The notes beneath the pieces were generated by a model. The model was given only the letters and a program-made list of their open reading frames with translations, did not search any database and had not been told where the DNA came from. A stretch of DNA of 39,136 nucleotides from positions 1 through 39,136 of IMG/VR virus record IMGVR_UViG_3300002301_000035; one strand, written 5' to 3'. Position numbers and translations under genes: made by a program. Positions within the stretch are counted from its first letter, which is position 1, and every line of letters starts with the position of its first letter. Shown here piece after piece: positions 5,934-38,959 of the stretch. Source of the stretch: a virus. Lineage: Duplodnaviria; Caudoviricetes.

Positions 5934-7280
5934 TTATTTATAGTATTCTTTGATGATGATTATACCTTGAGTACCACCAGAACCACTCGAACTTCCTGAA
6001 GTTCCGCCTCCTCCGTATGCCCCGTTGTTTCCAAATATACCTGAACCGCCTGAGGACAGTGCCGAACCACTTGTTCCAACTCCATTGCCTCCCGATATAT
6101 TTACAGAACCATTACTTGCTGAACCACCAGAACCTCCTCCTCCGTTATAGGTACCTCCTCCTCCGCCATTAGCAAGAGCTATGATACCCGCCGCTCCAAA
6201 GTTTGTCGGGCCTCCACCACCGCCATTGCTTGAACCTCCACCGCCATTGCCAGCACTCCCAACAACAACAGGAATCGAAGTCGCAAGCGTTGCGTTATAA
6301 AATGCCCTACTATATCCTCCTGCTCCACCTCCTCCTGCGCCATTAGTTGAACCATTACCCCCACCTCCTCCACCGCCTCCTCCCACTGCTTCAATTTCGA
6401 GATATACAGCCCCATAAGGAGGAATATAAGTTCCTGAACCCAAAGTAGTAATTACAGATGTGGTTGGATACTTAAAATTAGGAGAAGTGAGTTGAAAATT
6501 AGTGCCATCAAATACCATTGAAGAAACTTGGCCTAATGTTATATCTCCTGAGGCAAGTGATATATTATAATTTTTTACTATTGGCTTAGCACCGATAGAA
6601 TTTACGTTAAGAGTGACACCAGTTCCATTTGAGACAGGAAACAATACATTCAAATACGAACCTGAAGCAAGCGTAGAAATTGATGAAGCGAGAGAAACCG
6701 TGTAGGCAGTCGGACTTCCTGTGGCTACCGCATAAGGTATTCCAGTATTTTTTATACTTGATACATACAAAGCTGTTCCTGAAGCAAGAATAGAAGGGTC
6801 ATTCGCACCCAGAGCGATAGGATTTGAACCGGTAACAGGTGCTACTGATAATTTGGTGATACCTGCTACTGTATTACTTGCAAATGAAGCACCGGAAGCC
6901 GCAGTAGTATTTACATAGGTGATTATATTTCCATAAAAACCTGCATCGTTTGAGAGAATGAACGTAGAACCCCCTGCATGAGATTTAGCAAGTCCTGAAG
7001 TGACTGTGTATGGATAGTTGAAACCTACGGAAGAAACACCCGTCAAGGTAGCTGTTCCATTGGCATTTTGTGTAACTCCTGTGAATTGTATGGCTTCTTC
7101 TTGTGAACCATTATTTGGTTCAAGAGTTCCATAACACTGAGTACCCAAATCAGCAGTAACGATATTTGTCACTCCGTCAGAGTATTTGAACGATTGAACT
7201 GTGATTGATGTATCTCCTGCTGATTGACCTGCGGCTGAAAGTTGGAAACTCTGTGCTTGGATAAACTGTATAGTTGCCAT
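5934..7280 (-). CDS. Tail fibre/spike-like protein with Gly-rich C-terminal domain
   Basis: Fibre-type motifs (VTLNVNSIGAKPI, GTYIPPYGAVYLEIEAVGGGGGGGGG...GIIIIKEY). Confidence 0.65.
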   Translation of the reverse strand: MATIQFIQAQSFQLSAAGQSAGDTSITVQSFKYSDGVTNIVTADLGTQCYGTLEPNNGSQEEAIQFTGVTQNANGTATLTGVSSVGFNYPYTVTSGLAKSHAGGSTFILSNDAGFYGNIITYVNTTAASGASFASNTVAGITKLSVAPVTGSNPIALGANDPSILASGTALYVSSIKNTGIPYAVATGSPTAYTVSLASSISTLASGSYLNVLFPVSNGTGVTLNVNSIGAKPIVKNYNISLASGDITLGQVSSMVFDGTNFQLTSPNFKYPTTSVITTLGSGTYIPPYGAVYLEIEAVGGGGGGGGGNGSTNGAGGGGAGGYSRAFYNATLATSIPVVVGSAGNGGGGSSNGGGGGPTNFGAAGIIALANGGGGGTYNGGGGSGGSASNGSVNISGGNGVGTSGSALSSGGSGIFGNNGAYGGGGTSGSSSGSGGTQGIIIIKEYYK

Positions 7281-9306: not shown

Positions 9307-10503
9307 TTACGTTAGACGACGACCCATATACTGATTATACCCACCCTTTGTCGGCGTGTAGTATGCCTGTCTCGACTTTTGAACCTGTGAAGGCTGACGA
9401 GCAGTATATTTTGCTTTAGCGGCATCGTATTCTCCTTTGAAGAAGTTGGCGTCATAAAACAAAGCATCAAGACCTTGCATCTCTTGTGCGGCATAGAAAG
9501 CTAAAGCGTTGAAATACAAATTATACGAATCAGTATCAAGATTTATCAGATTAGAATTATCGGTGACTGTCTCTTGAAAGACACCTGTGTTTGCATTTCT
9601 GTAGAGATACTTTGAATAGTATTCAATCGTTCTATAAAGTCCCATGTTTGAAACGATGTTATCCACACAGACACCCGTGAGATTGGCGGAAACTGTTACT
9701 CCGATGTAAAGATAATTTATTGCTGTGATTACGGGAGTTCCTACAACTGTACAACCAAACCAATCTCCTCGTATAAGATTCCAACCAGTAGCAAAAGCAT
9801 TCCCTTCGTTTGTTTGAGTCAGAACTCTTGAATAGTAATTAGAGGCATCAGAACCTATGCGAATTTCTGTAGAAGTCAATGAAGTTCCAAGTGGGAGGTA
9901 GAGATAGTAAAACCATGAGGCTTGATTGAGTTGAGAACTCATATCAAGTGTGCTGGCAAGAGTCTCTGAAATGTATCCCGTGCCAGTAGTTACGTTAAAA
10001 CACAACGAACCTGAACCCGAAGCATAATTCACATTATTTTCCGTAAGACTAGATGCAGTTCCTCCAGCAGACCAGTTATTCGTATCCTCACATGTGTCTA
10101 ATACAATCCCAGATGGTAGAGAGTTATCATTTACTCGGATAGTCTTGACTTGATTATTCCATTGAATAGTGAAATCTGATGGTGGTGCAATATAGTTTTT
10201 TGAAACATCAAATGGCTGATTGAATGTTTGGGTGATTATCTGACTGGCATCTCTTGTGTATTGAGGAGAGATATCAATGATTCTGTTTCCTTTCAAATCC
10301 ACAGGACAAGCATAATCCCAAATACCTGAATAAAAAGGTGTCGTTGAAAGTGTTTTTCTAACAGTCTCAATCGGGTCTATATCGTTCAACAACATTCTAC
10401 CCGCACGATTATGAAGCCCAAACAAGTTAGGAATTTGGTTTATGGTTAATCCGTGCGTGACCCCTAGAAGGTCACTATTCGCCGTGTTTACGGAGTAGCT
10501 CAT
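9307..10503 (-). CDS. Putative head-tail adaptor protein with inserted beta-sandwich domain
   Basis: Helical N- and C-termini flanking a carbohydrate-binding-like insert; position after MCP. Confidence 0.5.
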   Translation of the reverse strand: MSYSVNTANSDLLGVTHGLTINQIPNLFGLHNRAGRMLLNDIDPIETVRKTLSTTPFYSGIWDYACPVDLKGNRIIDISPQYTRDASQIITQTFNQPFDVSKNYIAPPSDFTIQWNNQVKTIRVNDNSLPSGIVLDTCEDTNNWSAGGTASSLTENNVNYASGSGSLCFNVTTGTGYISETLASTLDMSSQLNQASWFYYLYLPLGTSLTSTEIRIGSDASNYYSRVLTQTNEGNAFATGWNLIRGDWFGCTVVGTPVITAINYLYIGVTVSANLTGVCVDNIVSNMGLYRTIEYYSKYLYRNANTGVFQETVTDNSNLINLDTDSYNLYFNALAFYAAQEMQGLDALFYDANFFKGEYDAAKAKYTARQPSQVQKSRQAYYTPTKGGYNQYMGRRLT

Positions 10504-10509
10504 CGTAGT

Positions 10510-10782
10510 TTATGCTCCGTAGGAAATTGTTATATCAGATGCTCCACCAACTGATACAAACAATCCTGTTGCAAACTCTGCATCATATCTGAAACATGAA
10601 CCTATAACTGGAGAAGCGGCGATAGTGGCTATCTTTGTTCCACCCGTTGCTGTTCCATCATAGAGAACTATGCCCGAAGCGGCTGTAGTGTTTATGACAA
10701 CATTGCGGAGTGTTCCACGTCCCCTTTGAACAAGTTTATCAGAAGCTCCAGCTATGTTTATGAAATTAAACTTTGTAGACAT
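10510..10782 (-). CDS. Small virion structural protein (90 aa)
   Basis: Start moved to ATG 10782 (MSTKFNFINIAG), preceded by A-rich leader; beta-rich sequence. Confidence 0.65.
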   Translation of the reverse strand: MSTKFNFINIAGASDKLVQRGRGTLRNVVINTTAASGIVLYDGTATGGTKIATIAASPVIGSCFRYDAEFATGLFVSVGGASDITISYGA

Positions 10783-10807
10783 TTTGTTTTTATATTGGTT
10801 AATAATG

Positions 10808-10905
10808 ACCATCTCTTTCACCACCTCATTTCCTGACACTGTTCTGCTTCGGAATGATGAACCCTTAGGAAACAGTAAAAACTGGGAAAGTGATGAAAGA
10901 TAGGT
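10808..10905 (-). other. Long imperfect hairpin directly after the major capsid gene
   Basis: TCTTTCATCAC pairs with GTGGTGAAAGA, TTCC with GGAA, ACTGTT with AACAGT; no U-tract. Confidence 0.55.
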
Positions 10906-10910
10906 AACTA

Positions 10911-11861
10911 CTATGCCGTTGCACTTCCAACTGCTCCGATAACTCCAACGTAGTCGATGGCCACAACCTCCTCACGGAAGTTTGCCTGATAGAGATACGT
11001 TCGGTTATTAGAATAACCCCATGGTCGGAGGAAGGTCTCGATACCCTGACGAATGATACGCTTGATACCAGTGTTCCTTGCGAGCAAGAACCATGCTGTA
11101 TCAGAGCCTCCAGTTGCGGCCGAGAGATAAGGATTCGAGAAAACCCTATATCCATAAGCTGAACGGTAGACGTTGATTGCGTTCGTCGAGACATCTCCAG
11201 CAAGAGCAGAGTCTGAAAGTTCCAAAGCGAGCTTTATGAGAGCTGGCGGAACAAGGAGAACCTGCGGTTGCTGACCCTTGACTATGCCATTCTGGTTTGG
11301 CTGAACTGCCAAAGCAACGATAGCGGCGTTGAGGGAAGTCGAGGACAGGACTGTCGAAGCTCCTGAAATCGTGTACAGGTTGTTCGAGTAGAACGCTCCA
11401 TTCAAGAGAGCATGGTTTCCAACAAGAGCAACACCATCGGCGGTGAGCGACGTTGTGAAAGCACCACGGAAAATCTTGAAGGCGTTTGCGTCCATCGAGA
11501 TGCGTGCGTTTTCCGCAAGGTCTCGAACGGTCTCGGCCCAGACCCCATGCATTTGGTCATCGAAGAGATTTTTACTCAGCTCGACGCTTTCTGCAAAATC
11601 TTTAATTTGCGTAGTAATCTTGTTTGCTACTTTCGGAGTAGAAGTCGGGACAGTCTGTGATTCCGAAATAATCGGATACAGGTTCGTGCCACGATAGACT
11701 TCTTCAATGTCGAAAGCTCTATCTGTAGTCTCCTGGCGGAAAATCATTCCGTTCTGGCAGGTCGTCATAACAGGGTTTGAATCCTGATAGTTGAACTCCT
11801 GATAGAACACGGAATCAAGCTCCGTTCGGACTATAGCTAGGTTTTGCTGTTCTGAAAAAAT
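10911..11861 (-). CDS. Major capsid protein (HK97 fold), probable ATT start
   Basis: PQVLLVPPAL, VFSNPYL, DTAWFL motifs of Mu-gpT-like MCPs; frame is open 17 codons upstream of the GTG at 11810 (ATT-FSEQQNLAIVRTELDSVFYQ), bounded by TAA at 11876-11874. Confidence 0.8.
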   Translation of the reverse strand: MFSEQQNLAIVRTELDSVFYQEFNYQDSNPVMTTCQNGMIFRQETTDRAFDIEEVYRGTNLYPIISESQTVPTSTPKVANKITTQIKDFAESVELSKNLFDDQMHGVWAETVRDLAENARISMDANAFKIFRGAFTTSLTADGVALVGNHALLNGAFYSNNLYTISGASTVLSSTSLNAAIVALAVQPNQNGIVKGQQPQVLLVPPALIKLALELSDSALAGDVSTNAINVYRSAYGYRVFSNPYLSAATGGSDTAWFLLARNTGIKRIIRQGIETFLRPWGYSNNRTYLYQANFREEVVAIDYVGVIGAVGSATA

Positions 11862-11946
11862 AATATTTGAGTCTTACTAGATATTTATTCTCTAATAAGA
11901 TTACTGATAATTAAGTTGTTAATAACGTTCTCAATTAGCGTTCTAA

Positions 11947-12537
11947 CTATGTGCGATACGAGAGCTGATTACGGAACGAGAAACGAACCTTACCTGGGAA
12001 CTTTGTGATATCCAATTCCTCAACGATAAGACCTCCTGCTGAAGCGTCTGAAGCGTTGATGTAATACGTTCCACCAAGCTGTGAAGCACCTGTGCCACCA
12101 ATACGGTTGAATGTGGTTCGATAACCGACTGTGCCGTCATAAACTTGCTGATTCGTATTACCCGCTGTTCCAGTTGCGTACGCACCGAAGAACAATGATG
12201 TAGCTTGAGTTGAAATCAAGTACGTCAAAGGTTCATCAATCGGTGTAACTGAAACCTGACCATTCTGGTTGCCGGAAGTCAGTTCATTCGATGTCGTGGC
12301 GGCTACACCGACAATCGGCTGAAATGCTATTGGGCCTGAAGCAATGACTGGGAAGTACGAAGTGGCTGTGCCAGAAGCAAGAGCTACGGCAAAACTACCC
12401 GCACCGGCGGCCTTTGTGACAGGTTCACCAGAAAGGATTTGGGGGACTACTGTAGCGGTTGCTACTTCATAATTTATATCACCAGGATAGCCTGTGCCAT
12501 TATCCTTTGAATAAATCGTTATGTCTCCTAAAGCGAT
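11947..12537 (-). CDS. Putative capsid decoration/cement protein (196 aa), probable ATC start
   Basis: Frame is open 103 codons upstream of the called TTG (ATC-ALGDITIYSKDNGTGYPG...ILSGEPV...IVGVAATTSNE); no in-frame ATG before TAG at 12549-12547; between scaffold and MCP. Confidence 0.7.
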   Translation of the reverse strand: MALGDITIYSKDNGTGYPGDINYEVATATVVPQILSGEPVTKAAGAGSFAVALASGTATSYFPVIASGPIAFQPIVGVAATTSNELTSGNQNGQVSVTPIDEPLTYLISTQATSLFFGAYATGTAGNTNQQVYDGTVGYRTTFNRIGGTGASQLGGTYYINASDASAGGLIVEELDITKFPGKVRFSFRNQLSYRT

Positions 12538-12597
12538 GTTAGTAACCTATTGGTTATGCGTTAGCGCACTTTTGCAATAGGGTATTAAGCCTAATAA

Positions 12598-13143
12598 TTA
12601 TTTAGGCATTTGATTGACCTTGTTCAGATTCTTCTTGAACTCTTCGATTTTCTTGTCATCCCAACCTCTCGCTTTTAATGAAGCTAACTGGTCGTTCGAC
12701 AATACATTATCTACTTTTCCTTCAGGTCGTTCTTGGTTAGAACCTTGACCACTAGAAGTGTTTATCTGACCTCGGTTTTTCAATGCCAAGGTTAGCTCTT
12801 TGTTTTTCTTTGCTAGACTCAAAACGAGAGCATCCTTTTCGGACTGGACTTGTGCCTCACGGGTTTGGAGAAGTCTCTCCTGAACCTTTCGGTCAATCTT
12901 TGCATCCAAATCCTCTTCAGAAGAGTTGTCATCCTCTTCAGGTAGCTTTCCTTTAGCCTTCAACATTCCCTTTCGGTAGTTGTCTTTTTCTTCTCGGACT
13001 TTCGCTATTTCAGCGTCTTTCTTTTGAAGTTCGGCCTCGTAATCTACCTCTGGTTGAGTTTGAGAAGGAGTTTCAACCTTGGTCTCCTGTGGAGTAGCAG
13101 CAACTTCCACTTTTGTTTCAACTGCTGGCTTTGTTTCTGACAT
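12598..13143 (-). CDS. Capsid scaffolding protein
   Basis: Acidic/charged coiled-coil with C-terminal helix, upstream of MCP; ATG 13143 has an A-rich leader, while upstream ATGs sit in hairpins. Confidence 0.7.
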   Translation of the reverse strand: MSETKPAVETKVEVAATPQETKVETPSQTQPEVDYEAELQKKDAEIAKVREEKDNYRKGMLKAKGKLPEEDDNSSEEDLDAKIDRKVQERLLQTREAQVQSEKDALVLSLAKKNKELTLALKNRGQINTSSGQGSNQERPEGKVDNVLSNDQLASLKARGWDDKKIEEFKKNLNKVNQMPK

Positions 13144-13318
13144 GTGTTTTTTAATAGCCTTTACTTCTTGCGAAGAGGGCATTTCGGCTACGCCCATATA
13201 ACTAAAGAAGCACTCATTCTGTGAGTGCTCCTGTGGATTACCTAAGCCAGAACGCTAATTAAGACTTAGGTACTCCGCGGGGGTACCCAAAGTTTAGCGT
13301 TCTTAACTTGTTAAATAG
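13144..13318 (-). ncRNA. Structured 5' leader of the scaffold-capsid operon
   Basis: AGAACGCTAA/TTAGCGTTCT, GGGTAC/GTACCT, TACCTAAG/CTTAGGTA, AGCACTCA/TGAGTGCT and GGGCGT/ATGCCC stems. Confidence 0.5.
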
Positions 13319-13669
13319 CTACTTTTTTTCCTTACTTCTTATAATTTTAACAATAGATGCCAGAATGTCAAGTTCATATAACATTGTCTTACAAGTTTTC
13401 AAGTCTTCAAACGAAGTAGACTTGTTAAAACCCTTGTCCATTGCTTCATTCCTAATTGTCTCCTGAAAAATTGTCCATATCCTTAAACTATCAAACACTT
13501 TTGCTTCTGCAATAAGACTTCGTAATTCAGTTTCTTCAACTTCCTTTCCACCGATAAATAGTTTTCCTTTCTCATGAGTAATTATATCATTTGCATTAAC
13601 AGAACACAACAGATAACTAGTCAATCTGTTGATAACCCTCCATTTTATGTTATTTGCCCATGATTTCAT
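13319..13669 (-). CDS. Hypothetical head-module protein
   Basis: 116 aa ORF overlapping upstream gene between portal and scaffold. Confidence 0.7.
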   Translation of the reverse strand: MKSWANNIKWRVINRLTSYLLCSVNANDIITHEKGKLFIGGKEVEETELRSLIAEAKVFDSLRIWTIFQETIRNEAMDKGFNKSTSFEDLKTCKTMLYELDILASIVKIIRSKEKK

Positions 13670-19242: not shown

Positions 19243-19582
19243 CTTTTTCATCATAAGGTTCACTGCACGCTTCAAGCATTATCGTTCCTGCTAGTAATGT
19301 AAATGTATGTATAATTTCTCTTGGAACGAATATACAATCACCTTCAAATATCCACCCTATAAGTTTTCGAGAACGAGGTTCAATTGATTGTAGCATATAT
19401 TTTCCACGGCCTTTGAGAATATAAAACACACTATCGTTGTTCATGTGGTAATGATTTCCAACTATGCTCTTTTGTTTCATTTCCAAAACCTTACAACGCT
19501 TAAAAGGAATGTCCTTAATCCATTCTGTAAGAACTCTTCGTTCGTCTTCATGTTTGGTTATTGGTAGTCCCATTGGTATCAT
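19220..19582 (-). CDS. Cupin-fold sugar epimerase/isomerase (WxcM/FdtA-like)
   Basis: HEDERR, GNHYH...FYILKG and PREIIHTF cupin motifs. Confidence 0.75.
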   Translation of the reverse strand: MIPMGLPITKHEDERRVLTEWIKDIPFKRCKVLEMKQKSIVGNHYHMNNDSVFYILKGRGKYMLQSIEPRSRKLIGWIFEGDCIFVPREIIHTFTLLAGTIMLEACSEPYDEKDEIPISQ

Positions 19583-20592
19583 TGTTTTAATTCTTCATCG
19601 CACATAATTTTTACAAGGTCTTTGAACTTAACCTGTATTTCCCTATTCAATAATTTTTTCATTTTTGAAGCATCTCCAAGAAGTAAATCAACTTCTGCTG
19701 GTCGGAGTAAGTTAGCATCATATTCTACATACTCATGCCAATCTCCCAACCCAACATATTCAAAAGTTTCCTTTACAAACTCTTCAATGGTATGTGTCTC
19801 TCCTGTTGCAACAAGAAAATCCTGTGGCTCTTGTGTGGTAACGAACTCATAAATAATATCCATATATTCTTTAGAATATCCCCAATCTCTTTTAGCTTGA
19901 AGGTTGCCGAGCTTGAGCTTTGATTGTTTGCCATTCTTTATCGCTACAGCGGCTTTGACTATCTTGCGAGTAACGAACAGGTGTCCACGACGTGGTGATT
20001 CATGATTGAATAGGATACCATTATAGATTTTCATCCCATATCCTTCGCGATATGCGCGTCCAAGAGAGAACGCGAATACTTTTGAGCAACCATACGGCGA
20101 ACGAGGATGAAACGGCGTAGTTTCCTTTTGAGGTATCTCTTCGACTTTACCGAACATCTCAGACGAACCTGCCTGATATATCTTTGCTTCAGGACAGAAC
20201 ATCCTGCAAGCCTCTAGGATGCGTCCAAATCCTACTCCCGTGACATCCTCGGTATAGAGTGGAATGTCATATGAAGCTCTAACATCCGATTGAGCAGCAA
20301 GACAAAATACTAAGTCAGGTTTAACTTCACTCACTACTCGATTGATTGAGGTGGCATCAGCCAAATCCATGAGATAAGTCTTTATAGAACTTATGATGGT
20401 ATTCACATTAGACGTGTTAGGCGTAGCAGAACGTCTCATCGTCCCATAAACATCATAGCCTTTCTCGATGAGCAGCTCGACCATGTATGAAGCATCTTGG
20501 CCTGTGATGCCGAATACCAACGCTTTCGGTTTAAGCTCTGATACAAGGGAACCATGTATATCGTCTAACTTTAGAGGTTCATTCTTTTCCAT
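19579..20592 (-). CDS. gmd: GDP-mannose 4,6-dehydratase
   Basis: GITGQD, LAAQSDV, YQAGSSEMFG, PFHPRSPYGCSK, GILFNHESPRRG, FVTRKI, LGNLQAKRDWG, RPAEVDLLLGD; start refined to ATG 20592. Confidence 0.95.
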   Translation of the reverse strand: MEKNEPLKLDDIHGSLVSELKPKALVFGITGQDASYMVELLIEKGYDVYGTMRRSATPNTSNVNTIISSIKTYLMDLADATSINRVVSEVKPDLVFCLAAQSDVRASYDIPLYTEDVTGVGFGRILEACRMFCPEAKIYQAGSSEMFGKVEEIPQKETTPFHPRSPYGCSKVFAFSLGRAYREGYGMKIYNGILFNHESPRRGHLFVTRKIVKAAVAIKNGKQSKLKLGNLQAKRDWGYSKEYMDIIYEFVTTQEPQDFLVATGETHTIEEFVKETFEYVGLGDWHEYVEYDANLLRPAEVDLLLGDASKMKKLLNREIQVKFKDLVKIMCDEELKQ

Positions 20593-21442
20593 ATAGTTGT
20601 TTTTGATAGTTGATAGTTTTCTGAATCCCAATTCCGAAGTCCACAAACTGACGTGGAAATTCGGTTAAAGTCTTAGTTAGGTCTAGTTCAACCGTGTCGG
20701 GCGATCCTTCCAATCGTTTCTTTCCTTCGATAACTTTAGCATGAGTTATGAATCCTACATAGTTAGCGATATCTTTCACAGAAACTTTAGACACGCCGCC
20801 GACATTATAAACGCAGTCTTTTCCATTAAAAAGTATATCAAGCATCATATCCACCGCATCTTCAACGTAGCAATAGGTTCTGATAGCCGAGCCGTCATCG
20901 AGCATTTTAATCTCCTTTTTAGTCAAAGCATCTTCGATAAATTGATTGATGACACGAGTGTCGCCTTTCTTTGTCCCTGGGCCATATGCTAAAGCAAGTC
21001 TAGCAATTTTCACGTCATAGCCTTGTTCTCTATAAGCCATACAGATAGCTTCGCCACAACGCTTGCCTTCGATATAACAGGCACGAGGATGTTGAGGAGT
21101 GGTAGTGCCTATATCAGTTTCTTTGTGAGGACTTGGTGCGCCTGAATAGATTTCAGAGGTGGATATATAAAGAAACTTTCCACCTGGTTTAAGATACTGA
21201 AAAGCTATTTGAACTGCACCTGTATTTATTCTCAATGTTTGAAGTTTATCCTCTGAAAATTTAATCGGTTGACCATAGCCAGAGCCAAAAATAATATAAT
21301 CGAAAGAACCAAGTTTTAGTTCATCACCAAAGTCAACACACTTTACTTTCGTAATCTCAATATCAGGATAATCTCTCTCCAACACTTTACAGATGTTAGA
21401 GCCGACTAGACCGTATGCACCACAAATTAAGATTTTCTTCAT
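20579..21442 (-). CDS. NAD-dependent sugar epimerase/reductase (extended SDR, UXS-like)
   Basis: GAYGLVG, STSEIY, PRACYIEGKR (YxxxK), YGPG, DGSAIRTYCY. Confidence 0.9.
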   Translation of the reverse strand: MKKILICGAYGLVGSNICKVLERDYPDIEITKVKCVDFGDELKLGSFDYIIFGSGYGQPIKFSEDKLQTLRINTGAVQIAFQYLKPGGKFLYISTSEIYSGAPSPHKETDIGTTTPQHPRACYIEGKRCGEAICMAYREQGYDVKIARLALAYGPGTKKGDTRVINQFIEDALTKKEIKMLDDGSAIRTYCYVEDAVDMMLDILFNGKDCVYNVGGVSKVSVKDIANYVGFITHAKVIEGKKRLEGSPDTVELDLTKTLTEFPRQFVDFGIGIQKTINYQKQLYGKE

Positions 21443-23043
21443 TTCTTTAAAGCTTCAGTCCAAAATGTTTTGGCTGAATAAAGTTCTTCTGTTTTCTTTT
21501 GTCCTGACCTTGCGATAGATAAGCGTTCTTCTTCATGCTCTAAATAATACTTTACCTTATCCAGCAAGTCAACCTCAGTTATCCACTCCACATAATCCAC
21601 TCCAGGAGTGTAGAGTTTAGCCAATTCATCTGACTTCTGTTCAAATAGACAAGCACCGCAGCTCATAGCTTCAAACGGCCTGGCATTCACCACACTCATC
21701 CCATGAGCCTTAGAGAAAGATAGGGCAATCTTTGCTTTCTTGTATCCTCCTGCATAGTCAGCAGTCGAGAAATGGTCTCTGCCTTCCGAACCACCGCATA
21801 TTAGGTTTATCTTGTTGCCAAGTAGATACTTCAAATAGAACTGACGTTCTTCACGACCAAGACCATAGGAACCCAAGAAGATAACATCTATGTCTCTCTG
21901 TAAGTTGGGATTGTTGAATATACGAGGGTCTTTGGGGACATGGACATATTTGAAACCTACGGATTCTACTGCGTCCTTGTTTGCCGTACCAAGATTCTTC
22001 CATGTATATGGTTTTACAGTAAGAGCAATATCTCTCTGTTGTTGTGCTTCCAAATCTCCCCAGATGGTTATGATAGGGATTCCGAGAGCATGTAGAACTC
22101 CAAGAGTGTCTGGGTGCATGACAGCAGGGTCAGAGCCGAGAGGTTTGTAGATTATTAAAACTATATAGTCAGGTGCAATGGCATCAATCCTTTCAATCAA
22201 CGCTTGGTCTCCCCTCTTTCCCGTGTGGTAGAAGAACTTATCGAAATGAAACCTGCATACTTCAGCCAGTCCTGTGGATTCAAGAGATGCCCAAATGTTT
22301 CCTTCCCATTCTGATATGCCCATGCGTGGATTGCCTGCGCAGAAATAGTCCCCTATAAACATCACAACAGGCTTGGTGCGATTAAAGGTAGTTCTCTTGA
22401 ACGAAGAATACCTACCATCCTCAAAATAGTTGAAGAGAACGAAAGCATCGGGAATATATTTAACAGCTTCTCCCAATTCTTCCACTACTTTACAAACCAT
22501 CTCTCCATCTCCTACATTTGAAAGACCATAGCGGTAGTCTCGGAGAAACTTTCCCTTCAAGATGAGTTGTTCTCCCCCCACAGACCCTATTTTTATATTC
22601 TTGGGACTCCCAATGAGTTGGTCTATGGAATCTTCCCAATGACCCATTTGATTCTTCCAATCATCCCAAACAACATGGTTTATCTTTCTATCTGAACGCT
22701 TCATGGAAACTATCACAGCATCTGCGTTTATAATCTTCTCAAAGAATCCTTGACCGCTGACGCAGTCGGCTTCTTCAACAGAATCATCATCACAAAGAAT
22801 CATATATTGCGTCTCCATTTCCAGCTTCTTCTCCCCTATGAACTTATTAAACAGCCAGTTGGATTTACAAAGTCCCTCTCTTTCTGGTGGTTTCTCATAC
22901 ATCCTTACCTCAACCCAATCGGGAAATTTGTCTTTTAGCTCCTCGTTATCAATCAAAACAATCCAATTAGCTTTGCCTTTCAAGACATTAGCCATCAATT
23001 CGATGTTTTCTTTTCTTTGAAAGGGAGTTACGACAGTTATCAT
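21439..23043 (-). CDS. Bifunctional glycosyltransferase (GT-A-like N-terminus plus CgeB-like GT-B C-terminus)
   Basis: ITVVTP and ILCDDD in N-half; DIDVIFLGS, RPFEAMSCG and KYYLEHEEERLSIA in C-half. Confidence 0.8.
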   Translation of the reverse strand: MITVVTPFQRKENIELMANVLKGKANWIVLIDNEELKDKFPDWVEVRMYEKPPEREGLCKSNWLFNKFIGEKKLEMETQYMILCDDDSVEEADCVSGQGFFEKIINADAVIVSMKRSDRKINHVVWDDWKNQMGHWEDSIDQLIGSPKNIKIGSVGGEQLILKGKFLRDYRYGLSNVGDGEMVCKVVEELGEAVKYIPDAFVLFNYFEDGRYSSFKRTTFNRTKPVVMFIGDYFCAGNPRMGISEWEGNIWASLESTGLAEVCRFHFDKFFYHTGKRGDQALIERIDAIAPDYIVLIIYKPLGSDPAVMHPDTLGVLHALGIPIITIWGDLEAQQQRDIALTVKPYTWKNLGTANKDAVESVGFKYVHVPKDPRIFNNPNLQRDIDVIFLGSYGLGREERQFYLKYLLGNKINLICGGSEGRDHFSTADYAGGYKKAKIALSFSKAHGMSVVNARPFEAMSCGACLFEQKSDELAKLYTPGVDYVEWITEVDLLDKVKYYLEHEEERLSIARSGQKKTEELYSAKTFWTEALKK

Positions 23044-26947: not shown

Positions 26948-27044
26948 ACTTATATCTACATTTAGAACATACCCATTTCTTCCTATCCTCACTCAGATAG
27001 ATTTGATGTACTTCTTGACGACATGTAAAACATTGGTAAATCAA
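26862..27044 (-). CDS. Possible small zinc-ribbon protein
   Basis: CFTC...CSKC; TTG overlaps glycosyltransferase stop, but it overlaps the convergent + gene by 86 nt. Confidence 0.35.
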   Translation of the reverse strand: MIYQCFTCRQEVHQIYLSEDRKKWVCSKCRYKSMKPATPKSSDAQSSTSPKPISSHHARA

Positions 27045-28078
27045 GTTAAGTATATTTTCTTTAGTGGCTCTAATTGAGTTATTATATCACGATTTTCTTT
27101 AATCCAATCCAAATGAGTTTCTCTAGTAGCTTTTAATCTATCGGGGTTATTTATGAAGTATTCAATATCAGTCTCCCACTCTTCGGTTAAAACCGAGGTT
27201 GGCTCATTTTGATATGCTATAACATCTCCAGCGAGGGCTAAAGCACCTGACAGGGTGTATTCCATGGCTTTACACGCGCTACGATGACGATTAAAGGGCG
27301 TATCTTTCAAAGGGCATAGTCCGATATCAAGTGCCATATTTATCAAGGTAGAGGGGTATATCGTGTAATCCACATAGGGAATCCACTCAAATTGTATTCC
27401 TGCAAGCAGTTTGTCTAATTCTTCTAGTTTCTTGGTGGCTTCTTCGGGTGCGGAATATCTGAAATCCTTATACCAAGATTGATAATCAGATTGTCCAAAT
27501 CCCATTATGAGGAACTTAATATCGTATTTTTTCTGTAATCGCTGTATGACAGGGATAATTTCTATCAAATCTTCTACATGAGTAGCAGATCCGGAGAATC
27601 CTATCCTAAATCCTTCTCGCGTGGGTCTTGGATATGTCCATTCGCTTGGTACATAGCAATTAGGAATGACGGTAATGGGTGCGGTTGTTTTGTTTTTGAG
27701 ATAGGGAATAAACTCTGGCGTGCTTACCGTGATGTGGTCTGCATATTGTAAAGCTAATAGTTGAGATGATTTATCTTTTTTAACTGAATAATAAAATGGA
27801 TTGGTTGGTTCTATAAGTTCTAACGCGTCATCCATATCATAAACAATCTTCTTTCCATTTTCTTTCATATACTTAAATACCCTTTCCATTGAAAAGGGTG
27901 TCGCACCATAAAACTGAAAGGACTTATACAGTTCTATATCGTCTACATCTTCATTCAAATGAATAGCGTGGGTTTTTACTCTATTCCTATCCAACATTTC
28001 CATAGGTTGTTTTATGCGGTACATGTAGCAACCGCTAGATTTATGTTCCCAATACCCTATGATAGCGTTCTTGTCCAT
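27041..28078 (-). CDS. GT-B glycosyltransferase (GT4-like)
   Basis: SGCYMYRI, VYDMDD, ADHITVST, VIPN, RIGFSGSATH, DIGLCPL...FNRHRSACKAMEY. Confidence 0.85.
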   Translation of the reverse strand: MDKNAIIGYWEHKSSGCYMYRIKQPMEMLDRNRVKTHAIHLNEDVDDIELYKSFQFYGATPFSMERVFKYMKENGKKIVYDMDDALELIEPTNPFYYSVKKDKSSQLLALQYADHITVSTPEFIPYLKNKTTAPITVIPNCYVPSEWTYPRPTREGFRIGFSGSATHVEDLIEIIPVIQRLQKKYDIKFLIMGFGQSDYQSWYKDFRYSAPEEATKKLEELDKLLAGIQFEWIPYVDYTIYPSTLINMALDIGLCPLKDTPFNRHRSACKAMEYTLSGALALAGDVIAYQNEPTSVLTEEWETDIEYFINNPDRLKATRETHLDWIKENRDIITQLEPLKKIYLT

Positions 28079-29309: not shown

Positions 29310-29455
29310 GTAAATACAAAAAAGCAAAATCAGGAGAATGGGTACCACAAAAGAAACACATGCTATGGAAATGTTGTGATTGTGGATTGATACATAATGT
29401 CTATTTTAGAATTGGAAAAGAGGGATATTTAGAAGTTAAAATGACACGAAAATGA
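29306..29455 (+). CDS. Small CCDCGLxH-type protein (49 aa)
   Basis: MSKYKKAKSGEWVPQKKHMLWKCCDCGLIH...; ATGA-coupled on both sides. Confidence 0.6.
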   Translation: MSKYKKAKSGEWVPQKKHMLWKCCDCGLIHNVYFRIGKEGYLEVKMTRK

Positions 29456-29955
29456 AAATAGAAAGAAAATGGGCAATGCCTTCAGCACAGACTTTTATAA
29501 TAAAGCCCATTGCTGAATTATTGAAAGAAGAAATAAACACAAATAAGGAGATTTGGCTTGACCCTTTTTCTGGCAGTAACAGTCCAGCACAATATCGTAA
29601 CGATTTGAATGAAGAAGAAAATGCTCAAGACCACGAAGATGCAATTGATTGGCTCAAAAGACATAAAGAAGCTGATGGTATTTTACTTGACCCGCCATAT
29701 TCAAAAAGACAAATATCAGAACATTACAAAGCTAAGGGAATGATAGTAACAGGTTGGCATACTTCATCGGGTTGGACAGCCGCAATTAAAGATGAGACCG
29801 CTAGAATATGTAAGAAGGGCGGAAAAGTAATATGCTTTGGTTGGAGTTCAATGGGATTAGGTAAGTCTAGGGGCTTTAGAATGGAAAGAATACTTCTCGT
29901 TCCTCACGGCGGCGACCATAATGACACTATCGTAACTGTTGAAACTAAGATATAA
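29452..29955 (+). CDS. Small amino-DNA methyltransferase
   Basis: LDPFSG motif I and LLDPPY motif IV. Confidence 0.85.
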   Translation: MKIERKWAMPSAQTFIIKPIAELLKEEINTNKEIWLDPFSGSNSPAQYRNDLNEEENAQDHEDAIDWLKRHKEADGILLDPPYSKRQISEHYKAKGMIVTGWHTSSGWTAAIKDETARICKKGGKVICFGWSSMGLGKSRGFRMERILLVPHGGDHNDTIVTVETKI

Positions 29956-33818: not shown

Positions 33819-34301
33819 ATGTCTGATACTATAAAACTCCTATATGCCCGTATAAAGGATATGTGCATCGTTCCTTCAAACAGGAAAGAGTACGCCACTT
33901 TTCTTGAACAGAACGAAGGAAAGGATATACGGATACAAAGGGTTACGGGGTTGAGAACAGAGAAGCAGAATAATTCTCTCCATTCTTGGTGTAGTCAAGT
34001 GGCTAAAGAATTGAATGAAAAGGGTTTGACTGTTCAAGAGGTATTAAAAAAGACAATCGACCTTGACTGGAATACCTATCGAGTGAAAGACATTCTATGG
34101 AAAAGCGTTCAAGAAGCCTTAACTGGTAAAAAAAGTACTACGCAACTTGATAAGACAAAAGAAATAGATGAGATATGGGAACATCTTAATAGATTTCTCG
34201 GACAAAAATGTGATGGTATTTATGTCCCATTTCCTCACGAAGAAAAGGTCGAAGAAAAGCCTATTGATTATCCTAAAGAAACTTATAATCCAATTTTCTA
34301 A
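33819..34301 (+). CDS. NinB/Orf-like recombination mediator
   Basis: RTEKQNNSLH and STTQLDKT motifs. Confidence 0.5.
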   Translation: MSDTIKLLYARIKDMCIVPSNRKEYATFLEQNEGKDIRIQRVTGLRTEKQNNSLHSWCSQVAKELNEKGLTVQEVLKKTIDLDWNTYRVKDILWKSVQEALTGKKSTTQLDKTKEIDEIWEHLNRFLGQKCDGIYVPFPHEEKVEEKPIDYPKETYNPIF

Positions 34302-34341
34302 AATGAAAAATCTTCACGACATAATACAAAAGAATATGGAA
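34298..34341 (+). repeat. 44-bp direct repeat, copy 1 (copy 2 at 36269-36312)
   Basis: CTAAAATGAAAAATCTTCAC(G/A)ACATAATACAAAAGAATATGGAA, one mismatch. Confidence 0.9.
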
Positions 34342-34875
34342 AATAACACATGTGCAGAGTGTGGACATATAAATGGATTTCACTTGGATGATTGTCAATA
34401 CTATAATAAACCAAAAGTATTAGATGTCTGTTGTGGCCCAAAAGGAATGTGGTTCGATAAGCATGATGAAAGAGCATTATATTTGGATAAACGACGGGAG
34501 ACACATAAAAATGATTATCCGTCGGGATATAAAGAAATGTCTATTAACCCAGATATTATTGGAGATTTTACCGATATAAAGCAAGCAGATAATTCATTCT
34601 ATCTCGTTGTCTTTGACCCACCACATATAGCACAGGACACTGATGGTGAAATAACAAAAAGATATGGGGCATTACGAGGTGATTGGAGGGAAGAGATACG
34701 AAAAGGATTTTCAGAATGTTTCCGTGTATTAAAACCGAATGGTACACTTATATTCAAATGGAATGAGGTACGATTTTCTGTAAAAGAAATACTTAAACTT
34801 ACTGACCAGAAACCTCTATTTGGACATAAAAGTGGAAAGAAAATGCAAACACATTGGATTACTTTTATTAAATAA
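34303..34875 (+). CDS. SAM-dependent DNA methyltransferase (DPPH)
   Basis: VLDVCCG motif I, VVFDPPH, ECFRVLKPNG; start refined to ATG 34303. Confidence 0.85.
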   Translation: MKNLHDIIQKNMENNTCAECGHINGFHLDDCQYYNKPKVLDVCCGPKGMWFDKHDERALYLDKRRETHKNDYPSGYKEMSINPDIIGDFTDIKQADNSFYLVVFDPPHIAQDTDGEITKRYGALRGDWREEIRKGFSECFRVLKPNGTLIFKWNEVRFSVKEILKLTDQKPLFGHKSGKKMQTHWITFIK

Positions 34876-38244: not shown

Positions 38245-38408
38245 AAAAAGAATTAAATAGTAAAAAAGGAAAAGACGAATATATCCATTTCTATTGGGGT
38301 AAAAAGAATGTGGATTTGTTATGGAATGATTTTTTTGCTGGATTAAGCATGGAACAAGAAAAGGATTGTATAAAATTATTTGTAAAGAAATATAAAAAAA
38401 TACTATGA
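38241..38408 (+). CDS. Hypothetical protein (55 aa)
   Basis: ATGA-coupled on both sides. Confidence 0.55.
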   Translation: MKKELNSKKGKDEYIHFYWGKKNVDLLWNDFFAGLSMEQEKDCIKLFVKKYKKIL

Positions 38409-38959
38409 AAAAATATCAAATAATTTATGCCGACCCGCCATGGCAACAATCAAAAGGTGGAAAGAAATCTGTCCGAAAAAACTCATCAGGTGAGGAATTG
38501 GACTATCCTGTAATTTCTTTGGAAGAAATAAAAGACATTTTGTTCAAAGTAAGATTACTATATGCTGATAGTCCTCATTGTTTCTTTGTATGGACTATTG
38601 ATAAGTATTTACATGAGACAGAGGAAATGATGACTTCAAAAGGCTACAAGCTCCATGCTCGAATGATTTGGAATAAAGTTACAGGAATCCCTGCGGCCTT
38701 TACAATCCGCTTCGGACACGAATATCTTTTATGGTTCTATACACCAACACTCATAAAGATAGCAGAATCTGAAAGGGGAAAAATACATTCTGTATTCACG
38801 GAGCAAGTAAAAAGACATTCTCAAAAACCAGAAATCGCTTATCAGATTATTGAAAGGATGTATCCCAATACCAACAAGCTGGAATTATTTGCCCGCACAA
38901 AAAGAGATGGTTGGGATGTTTGGGGTAATGAAGTAAAATCAGATATAAAACTACTATGA
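38405..38959 (+). CDS. MT-A70 family adenine methyltransferase
   Basis: IIYADPPW, IWNK, HSQKPE, LELFAR, GWDVWGNE. Confidence 0.92.
   Translation: MKKYQIIYADPPWQQSKGGKKSVRKNSSGEELDYPVISLEEIKDILFKVRLLYADSPHCFFVWTIDKYLHETEEMMTSKGYKLHARMIWNKVTGIPAAFTIRFGHEYLLWFYTPTLIKIAESERGKIHSVFTEQVKRHSQKPEIAYQIIERMYPNTNKLELFARTKRDGWDVWGNEVKSDIKLL

Follow-up and report, generated by a model that had tools for sequence, protein, structure and literature searches.

In the bacterial infC gene, IF3 exerts autoregulation through an AUU or AUC start codon, and in E. coli the factor treats UUG as canonical (PMC5499595). In the split initiation of T4 gene 25/38, a stem that brings back a workable distance is required for efficient initiation (PMC3014915), and the T4 mobA/bypass system shows a translation trick that was kept after the nuclease was lost (10.1101/2022.08.31.505936). 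Herein, we analysed a 39-kb phage contig (39,136 nt; the whole stretch is called the window) with terminase, head and tail genes on the minus strand, in which two adjacent head genes likely start at ATC and ATT, each shortly after a predicted hairpin. The features concerned are as follows.

12598..13143, minus strand: upstream gene, likely the scaffold gene by position and composition; its stop lies 60 nt before the ATC
12546..12581, minus strand: two-part hairpin predicted by folding, 8 nt before the ATC
12535..12537, minus strand: ATC, likely start codon of the decoration gene; aligns with Met1 of homologues, with A at -3 and -6
11947..12537, minus strand: likely decoration (cement) gene, 196 aa, without Pfam or PHROG match
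11872..11900, minus strand: 10-bp hairpin predicted by folding, 10 nt before the ATT; likely the collapsed base of an HNH-cassette stem
11859..11861, minus strand: ATT, likely start codon of the major capsid protein (MCP) gene; aligns with Met1 of homologues, with A at -3 and -6
10911..11861, minus strand: MCP gene, 316 aa; PF25209, PF10124 and PHROG 371

The 316-aa product can be assigned firmly from its sequence as an HK97-fold MCP of the Phage_capsid_4/Mu gpT-like type, with matches to PF25209 (Phage_capsid_4, 50.2 bits; cut-off 27), PF10124 (Mu-like gpT, 39.7 bits; cut-off 20.1) and PHROG 371 (major head protein). The 196-aa product is likely a capsid decoration protein, a working name that we took from its predicted structure (pLDDT 60). 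Foldseek with this model returned nothing at E<=0.001. The top ten rows of a VIA structural comparison were all phage capsid entries, and the best row, 5wk1_X, the TW1 capsid-stabilising protein, had a Z score of 6.2, below the caution line of 8, with an rmsd of 4.0 for 127 aligned residues. Because this capsid-chain match spans residues 7-189, the first 103 codons are likely part of the fold. No family match was obtained for the likely scaffold gene.

Several other features of the window were recorded. For the likely scaffold gene, the probable start is ATG 13143 (MSETK) and not 13197. Before this ATG (13143-13196 on the minus strand), a conserved element common to the window and two relatives (L093:750 and L097:232) contains two overlapping pairings, possibly a pseudoknot or a branched stem, and ends about 11 nt before the ATG. 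A further hairpin lies at 13206-13232 (z -2.82). Directly after the MCP stop, a long stem at 10818-10896 on the minus strand matched the Rfam CyVA-1 RNA weakly (34.2 bits, with a gathering score of 41.4; E 3.8e-5), and ATG 10782, rather than the called GTG 10839, is the probable start of the next gene. Two nucleotide-sugar epimerase genes, one glycosyltransferase gene and three DNA methyltransferase genes are also present (19579-23043, 27041-28078, 29452-29955, 34168-34875 and 38405-38959).

A preliminary description of the window had proposed the ATC and ATT starts from the reading frames, and the frames are as it claimed. In the decoration frame, a TAG (12549-12547) is followed by three codons and then by ATC (12537-12535) and ALGDITIY. 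The 103 codons 5' of the called TTG contain no ATG, the first ATG, GTG or TTG being that TTG at codon 104, with one CTG at codon 86. In the MCP frame, a TAA (11876-11874) is followed by GAC TCA AAT ATT and then by ATT (11861-11859) and FSEQQNL, and the first GTG and the first ATG are codons 18 and 32. The MCP frame thus has two ATT codons in tandem, and the second was chosen by homology and by its A-6/A-3 context. Starts at the ATC and this ATT would explain a systematic annotation error, in which 7 of the 11 members of the window's MCP cluster were called from codon 18 or 32 and the decoration gene was called at half its length.

Both codons align with the first Met of homologues. Among 120 MCP homologues, 107 begin with MF or MW, nearly all at the ATT position, 3 begin with L or V at that position and 10 were called further in. 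Among 120 decoration homologues, 106 begin with MAL or MAQ, nearly all at the ATC position, and 7 begin with LAL. Compared with the sister phage L082, MCP codons 2-17 carry 6 synonymous differences and 1 non-synonymous difference, and decoration codons 2-103 carry 27 and 9, so that the N-terminal extensions are conserved with mostly synonymous changes; of the decoration changes that could be assigned to the lineage of the window, 5 are synonymous and 5 non-synonymous. Taken together, the ATC (12537) and ATT (11861) are likely initiation codons at conserved codon 1. Two other origins of the reading frames were considered and rejected. For splicing or editing back to ATG, no intron match was found, and the positions at which the four codons of this family deviate from ATG are not the same. 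For ribosomes reading on out of the upstream gene, the decoration gene is in frame, but TAA and TAG stand between the two, and homologues start where the ATC lies.

The preliminary description had also named assembly error and a decayed prophage as ways in which the two codons could be false; an artefact, be it sequencing error, a decayed phage or true starts lying downstream, is extremely improbable and largely refuted. The ATC is present in contigs from four other runs (X3, X5, X7 and X12), including runs of other years and studies, and the ATT with its hairpin in contigs from two (X3 and X4), so assembly error is unlikely; this support comes from contigs rather than reads, and the source and runs X3 and X4 may stem from a single campaign. 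The frames are intact, the extensions carry the synonymous excess over L082 given above, ATC also starts the decoration gene in two further phages (L093 and L175), and the structural match of the decoration protein begins at residue 7. Hairpin-less ATG alleles were seen in runs X4, X6 and X8. Only 5-13% of the words were found in three RNA runs.

The stems proposed in the preliminary description lie at the positions it gave. The outer stem of the decoration hairpin pairs 12581-12575 with 12552-12546 (7 bp) and leaves an 8-nt spacer to the ATC; within it, an A-rich internal loop separates an inner stem of 5 bp (12569-12565/12560-12556). The MCP stem pairs 11900-11891 with 11881-11872 and leaves a 10-nt spacer to the ATT. 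The absence of a Shine-Dalgarno (SD) sequence was likewise borne out, with no GGAG or GAGG before either codon, as in the genome at large, and none was seen 5' of either stem. Taken singly, the two hairpins are only moderately above chance: 10 of 200 shuffles were as good as the decoration hairpin (z -1.64) and 2 of 200 as good as the MCP hairpin (z -2.65). Helix energy averaged -6.8 over the short non-ATG leaders (n=18), versus -1.9 +/- 0.5 after shuffling. The pairing probability of the MCP stem stayed at 1.0 when coding sequence was added, and that of the decoration outer stem was 1.0, 0.14, 0.39 and 0.84 with 0, 15, 30 and 60 nt of coding sequence. The decoration hairpins of relatives have an equal span (34-37 nt) with different complementary arms, the outer stems staying complementary through many changes, and in many of them the A-rich internal loop and the inner stem are kept. 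Without the hairpin, the decoration leader would measure 15-29 nt (12 short leaders), versus 20-24 nt in three of four hairpin-less relatives. No consensus structure emerged when RNAalifold was given a MAFFT alignment (A3) of 13 among the 16 close-clade leaders with a hairpin, an Rfam scan of both window hairpins returned nothing, and no group I intron (RF00028) reached the gathering score in window positions 10500-13600.

We then took a census of the two starts across loci L001-L184, counting non-redundant starts with an aligned N-terminus and sufficient DNA 5' of the codon. Rows interrupted by introns or lying at contig edges were left out, the decoration starts of L084 and L137 were added by hand, and the window, as L081, contributes one row to each gene. 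For distant homologues, the closest in-frame ATG was taken as the start, a choice that biases the census towards ATG. The MCP starts (n=124) comprised 118 ATG, 5 TTG and 1 ATT, and the decoration starts (n=74) comprised 58 ATG, 12 TTG, 3 ATC and 1 GTG. Most relatives have ATG, and 22 starts do not (17 TTG, 3 ATC, 1 GTG and 1 ATT). That relatives keep an ATH codon together with the hairpin was not borne out: ATH occurs at only 1 of the 124 MCP and 3 of the 74 decoration starts, and most non-ATG relatives have TTG.

What does recur is the stem. A helix was defined as ungapped, of at least 5 bp and ending 5-12 nt before the codon, with a longer search span for the four HNH-bearing loci. With a limit of -2 kcal, such a helix precedes 22/22 non-ATG starts versus 74/176 ATG starts; at -4 kcal the counts are 20/22 versus 47/176, under a stricter whole-fold rule 18/22 versus 21/176, and within the close clade 20/20 versus 8/20. 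In both genes, the near-cognate starts thus accompany a stem ending about 7-10 nt upstream, as the preliminary description had supposed from the window. Because all non-ATG starts but also many ATG starts have a helix, a non-ATG start in either gene comes close to requiring the stem, which by itself does not suffice. The sequence context also differs, with A at -6 in 22/22 non-ATG starts versus 61% of ATG starts and A at -3 in 21/22 versus 55%, and GGAG or GAGG was found at -15..-4 in none of the 198 census starts. The rows of the census are related, each gene's tree requiring 6 state changes. Supported independent pairs numbered three for the decoration gene (1.9 versus 0.2, p 0.5) and four for the MCP gene (3.6 versus 0.0, p 0.125); they lie mostly in the expected direction and, being too few, fall short of significance. 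The start states are scattered: near-sisters differ, and so can both genes within a single phage. In the sister with 95% MCP identity, the MCP gene has ATG without a hairpin and the decoration gene has GTG.

A wider search added few relatives: the named phage collection gave only 3 distant matches, IMG/VR gave one more close relative (L175), and a motif scan for further ones gave none. Non-ATG starts (GTG, TTG and possibly ATA) also occur in a few homologues of window genes 9307-10503 (L012, L090, L093, L134 and L175) and 5934-7280 (L125, L134 and L150). In L166, an integrated relative, a long gap proved to be a decoration gene split by a frameshift and not an insertion.

The window itself has no HNH gene at these leaders, and some relatives do. 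A whole HNH ORF lies in the leaders of L086, L144 and L137 and a fragment in that of L084 (PF01844 above the cut-off), filling the 570-596-nt gap before the MCP gene in L086 and L144 and the 516-nt gap before the decoration gene in L137. All four loci start with TTG. Around the HNH genes, folding predicts a long-range stem whose end lies 7-10 nt before the TTG, and the HNH-bearing leaders show a promoter-like motif, read by eye. In L084, L086 and L137, the 3' arm of the stem consists of the last codons of the HNH gene itself. L084 is the L086 cassette with its middle deleted and its stem kept. The stem spans before the MCP gene form a decay series of 518, 180, then 49, 46, 37 and, in the window, 29 nt, which connects the cassette with the window's MCP hairpin, and the basal stems of the window, L084 and L086 all end at -10. 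The window and L084 have 6 of 9 letters of the 5' arm in common, with three paired changes. In a shuffle test of arm likeness to the window, L084 was matched by 1 of 1000 shuffles, L083 by 5, L087 by 8 and L092 by 297, values that are inflated, since both compared sequences are hairpins, for which the test did not control. The enclosing duplex beat its shuffles in three of the four TTG cassettes (0, 0 and 5 of 200 as good). As a control, an enclosing duplex was also found in 2 of 14 HNH genes that precede ATG genes, and all 14 of these keep ATG. HNH genes directly 3' of the MCP gene, with an enclosing duplex and an ATG at the next gene, were observed at L028:5289-5790 and L020:5405-5780.

Related nucleases occur in introns. 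Group I introns, most with HNH genes, lie within the first 7-19 MCP codons of distant relatives. RF00028 matched 6 of 11 loci scanned, all with intron-interrupted MCP genes, and had no match in the cassettes of L084, L086 and L144. The intron HNHs group beside the MCP-cassette HNHs (SH-aLRT 88) in a quick tree of a short alignment, in which one unrelated long row also falls among them. Since related HNHs sit in introns of these first codons, a homing target at the MCP 5' end is suggested. The intron loci L018, L023, L026, L053, L122 and L157 have the intron about 300-1000 nt before the MCP match, and the MCP genes of L098 and L175/L178 are also interrupted near codon 102.

Considering the observed codon position, stem geometry, A-3/A-6 context, four HNH leaders with TTG and a deletion derivative that keeps its stem, we propose that the hairpins are relics of HNH homing cassettes and that the stem now likely props up a weak codon, a reading that we judge evenly balanced between true and false. 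For the MCP hairpin the relic origin has direct support; for the decoration hairpin it would follow by analogy with L137. We infer the steps at the ribosome and those of nuclease specificity. An HNH cassette would insert 7-10 nt before the start, in an A/U-rich ribosome-binding region without SD, and its ends would pair, so that the cassette is looped out of that region. It would bring, or select for, a near-cognate start codon, which could shield the allele from its own nuclease; the start codon suggests itself as such an immunity site because it alone in the conserved 5' end can change without altering the protein. Alternatively, the weak codon may block early capsid synthesis from HNH-promoter transcripts that have no 5' arm. 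The nuclease would later be lost and the stem retained. With its optimal A-6/A-3 spacer, the kept stem could bring the two parts of the leader together again and set the register at the 30S mRNA exit, and so placed it might raise initiation at the weak codon. The ATH codons would be further near-cognate states tolerated by this arrangement, which would need no phage factor.

Several observations count against the relic origin. A hairpin-less contig from X7 crosses the MCP start, and in L091 and L092 a hairpin stands before ATG. Once coding sequence is added, an alternative fold competes with the outer decoration stem of the window, and the decoration stems of L083 and L096 had pairing probabilities of at most 0.27 in every context tried. 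For the L144 duplex, 55 of 200 shuffles were as good. Among 20 loci, none was found to have the close-clade decoration hairpin in an HNH-bearing form. Among 78 homologues of the gene at 9307-10503, 5 start with GTG or TTG, and 4 of these have no helix at -4 kcal.

The host bears on how such codons would be read, and it is probably a member of the Patescibacteria. Six of 14 GTDB matches lie in Patescibacteria-labelled genomes, and an MCP homologue and a 16S gene occur together on one contig. These Patescibacteria-linked relatives are only 32-46% identical, and the two best matches lie in Pseudomonadales- and Rhodoferax-labelled bins. In a class-wide search for hosts, only the centre genome itself matched among 401 genomes. 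Among the 40 ATG genes of the window, SD occurs in 1, A-3 in 27 and A-6 in 31; in the ribosomal-protein operons of 32 genomes of one candidate order, SD occurs in 5 of 548 genes, A-3 in 59% and A-6 in 63%. Bacteroidota share this SD-poor, A-3/A-6 signature, so it cannot fix the host as Patescibacteria. A U/A-rich motif often lies 15-20 nt before the ATG starts of the phages. A general rule of relaxed starts in the candidate hosts was considered and not seen, 548 of the 572 ribosomal-protein-operon starts being ATG and most of the other 24 belonging to families with variable N-termini; a helix precedes 119 of the 548 genes. Of two 16S genes from candidate host bins, one has the anti-SD, and one, with its 3' end at L189 (G003), is without CCTCCT and has an A/U-rich tail. 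This agrees with a report in which about half of Parcubacteria are described as being without CCTCCT, with h26 conserved (PMC9297842). IF3 was found in all 41 genomes searched. In 30 genomes of one Patescibacteria order (L224-L253), infC has no in-frame ATG in 26 and a TTG in 17, -7/-8 codons from the conserved Asn, the usual start place, which suggests from the gene sequences that UUG serves as the autoregulatory infC codon in that order. Since IF3 was found in every genome searched and infC is mostly without ATG, start-codon discrimination probably exists in these hosts.

Helices stand before many ATG starts as well, so the stem may be older than the HNH gene. It may be a general initiation enhancer that serves strongly expressed head genes where the host has no SD, for example by occupying the position of an SD helix on the 30S platform. 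It would relax the start codon, and its loop would be a safe site that the HNH gene later invaded. Stems 5-12 nt upstream are indeed common before ATG, at 32 of 52 scaffold and 26 of 58 decoration starts (the latter at -4 kcal), stems of differing sequence end at an equal distance, and the 16S genes without CCTCCT fit a ribosome of this kind. We still regard this order of events as unlikely, because in distant clades only HNH-bearing loci (L144 and L137) were found to be non-ATG, the 3' arm in three cassettes is the HNH gene's own end, and host ribosomal-protein genes are nearly all ATG with or without a helix.

The preliminary description had raised the possibility of a regulatory gate, in which a weak codon and a hairpin tie capsid synthesis to low IF3 or to a hairpin-binding phage activator. 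AUU and AUC are the targets of IF3 autoregulation (PMC5499595), the infC genes of the likely host group are mostly without ATG, and the internal loop and inner stem of the decoration hairpin persist in many relatives. Against these points, most relatives, including the 95%-identical sister MCP without a hairpin, have ATG, the state varies between near-sisters and between both genes of one phage, the hairpins range from a 19-nt simple stem to branched forms in which a common operator is not evident, and TTG, the commonest non-ATG state here, is IF3-canonical in E. coli (PMC5499595), so a gate seems quite improbable. Dosage or drift, with the ATH codons as weaker alleles that are tolerated or tune head-protein ratios and the hairpins as bystanders at the closest distance that the ribosome permits, would account for the helix-free GTG and TTG starts of the gene at 9307-10503 and for the equal numbers of synonymous and non-synonymous decoration changes in the window's lineage, and an output of AUU/AUC of about 5% of that of AUG is given for one case (PMC5499595). 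It is very unlikely in view of the helix at every one of the 22 non-ATG starts, their near-perfect A-6/A-3 context and the outer stems that remain complementary despite many changes.

If the relic reading is true, a selfish gene can occupy the ribosome-binding region and leave a structure-dependent non-AUG start on the most abundant phage proteins. A bolder form of it, which we put forward tentatively and consider rather doubtful, would add a fourth route to a harmless homing endonuclease, after introns, inteins and bypass: the element would sit in the ribosome-binding region inside a 500-nt stem, the AUG would be rewritten for self-immunity, and the stem base would act in cis like an SD helix on anti-SD-less Patescibacteria ribosomes, making AUU and AUC efficient despite IF3. 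The relatives offer a natural allelic series (ATG without a stem, ATG with a stem, TTG, GTG, ATC or ATT with a stem, and a stem with a whole or broken HNH gene), which suits tests of how ribosomes choose starts without SD, a question that arises for Patescibacteria.

Among known systems, plant pararetroviruses use ribosome shunting with an AUU start at the landing site. The arrangement here has the same order of stop codon, short spacer, stem and non-AUG start just past the stem, but the scanning ribosomes of that system are eukaryotic. The codons AUU and AUC are identical to those of infC (PMC5499595); unlike infC as described there, the products are capsid proteins, a feedback loop is not evident and the codon is not conserved among relatives. 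Like group I intron and free-standing homing, both collaborative and intronless (PMC3984707), the cassettes have related HNHs in MCP introns. Unlike group I introns, L084, L086 and L144 carry no RF00028, and splicing cannot yield ATG from four codons by one rule. In the open-access literature, judged by titles and abstract openings, we found no paper describing this arrangement.

The nearest likenesses are both in T4. As in mobA with the gene 60 bypass (10.1101/2022.08.31.505936; PMC3014915), a free-standing HNH gene is combined with an insertion-tolerating RNA element, and the nuclease is progressively lost with the RNA element kept; the insert there guards against self-nicking, for which we propose a parallel in the cassettes. 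An HNH gene, an RNA element and nuclease-less derivatives, which together mark a mobile cassette, were found in relatives L086, L144, L137 and L084. Unlike mobA/bypass, the insertion lies in the leader 7-10 nt before codon 1 and leaves the frames uninterrupted, there are no take-off or landing codons, no nascent peptide and no topoisomerase coding gap, the whole HNH gene lies inside the stem, and the start codon is changed. As in gene 25/38, the predicted stems lie just before the codons, at 8 and 10 nt, and their removal gives a normal leader length. Unlike that system as described, no SD lies 5' of the stem, ATT, ATC, TTG or GTG replaces AUG, some 500 nt that include an endonuclease gene can lie within the stem, and the function of the stem is predicted. 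By analogy, then, the arrangement resembles a cross of T4 gene 25/38 and mobA/bypass and stands outside both, with no SD and no coding gap.
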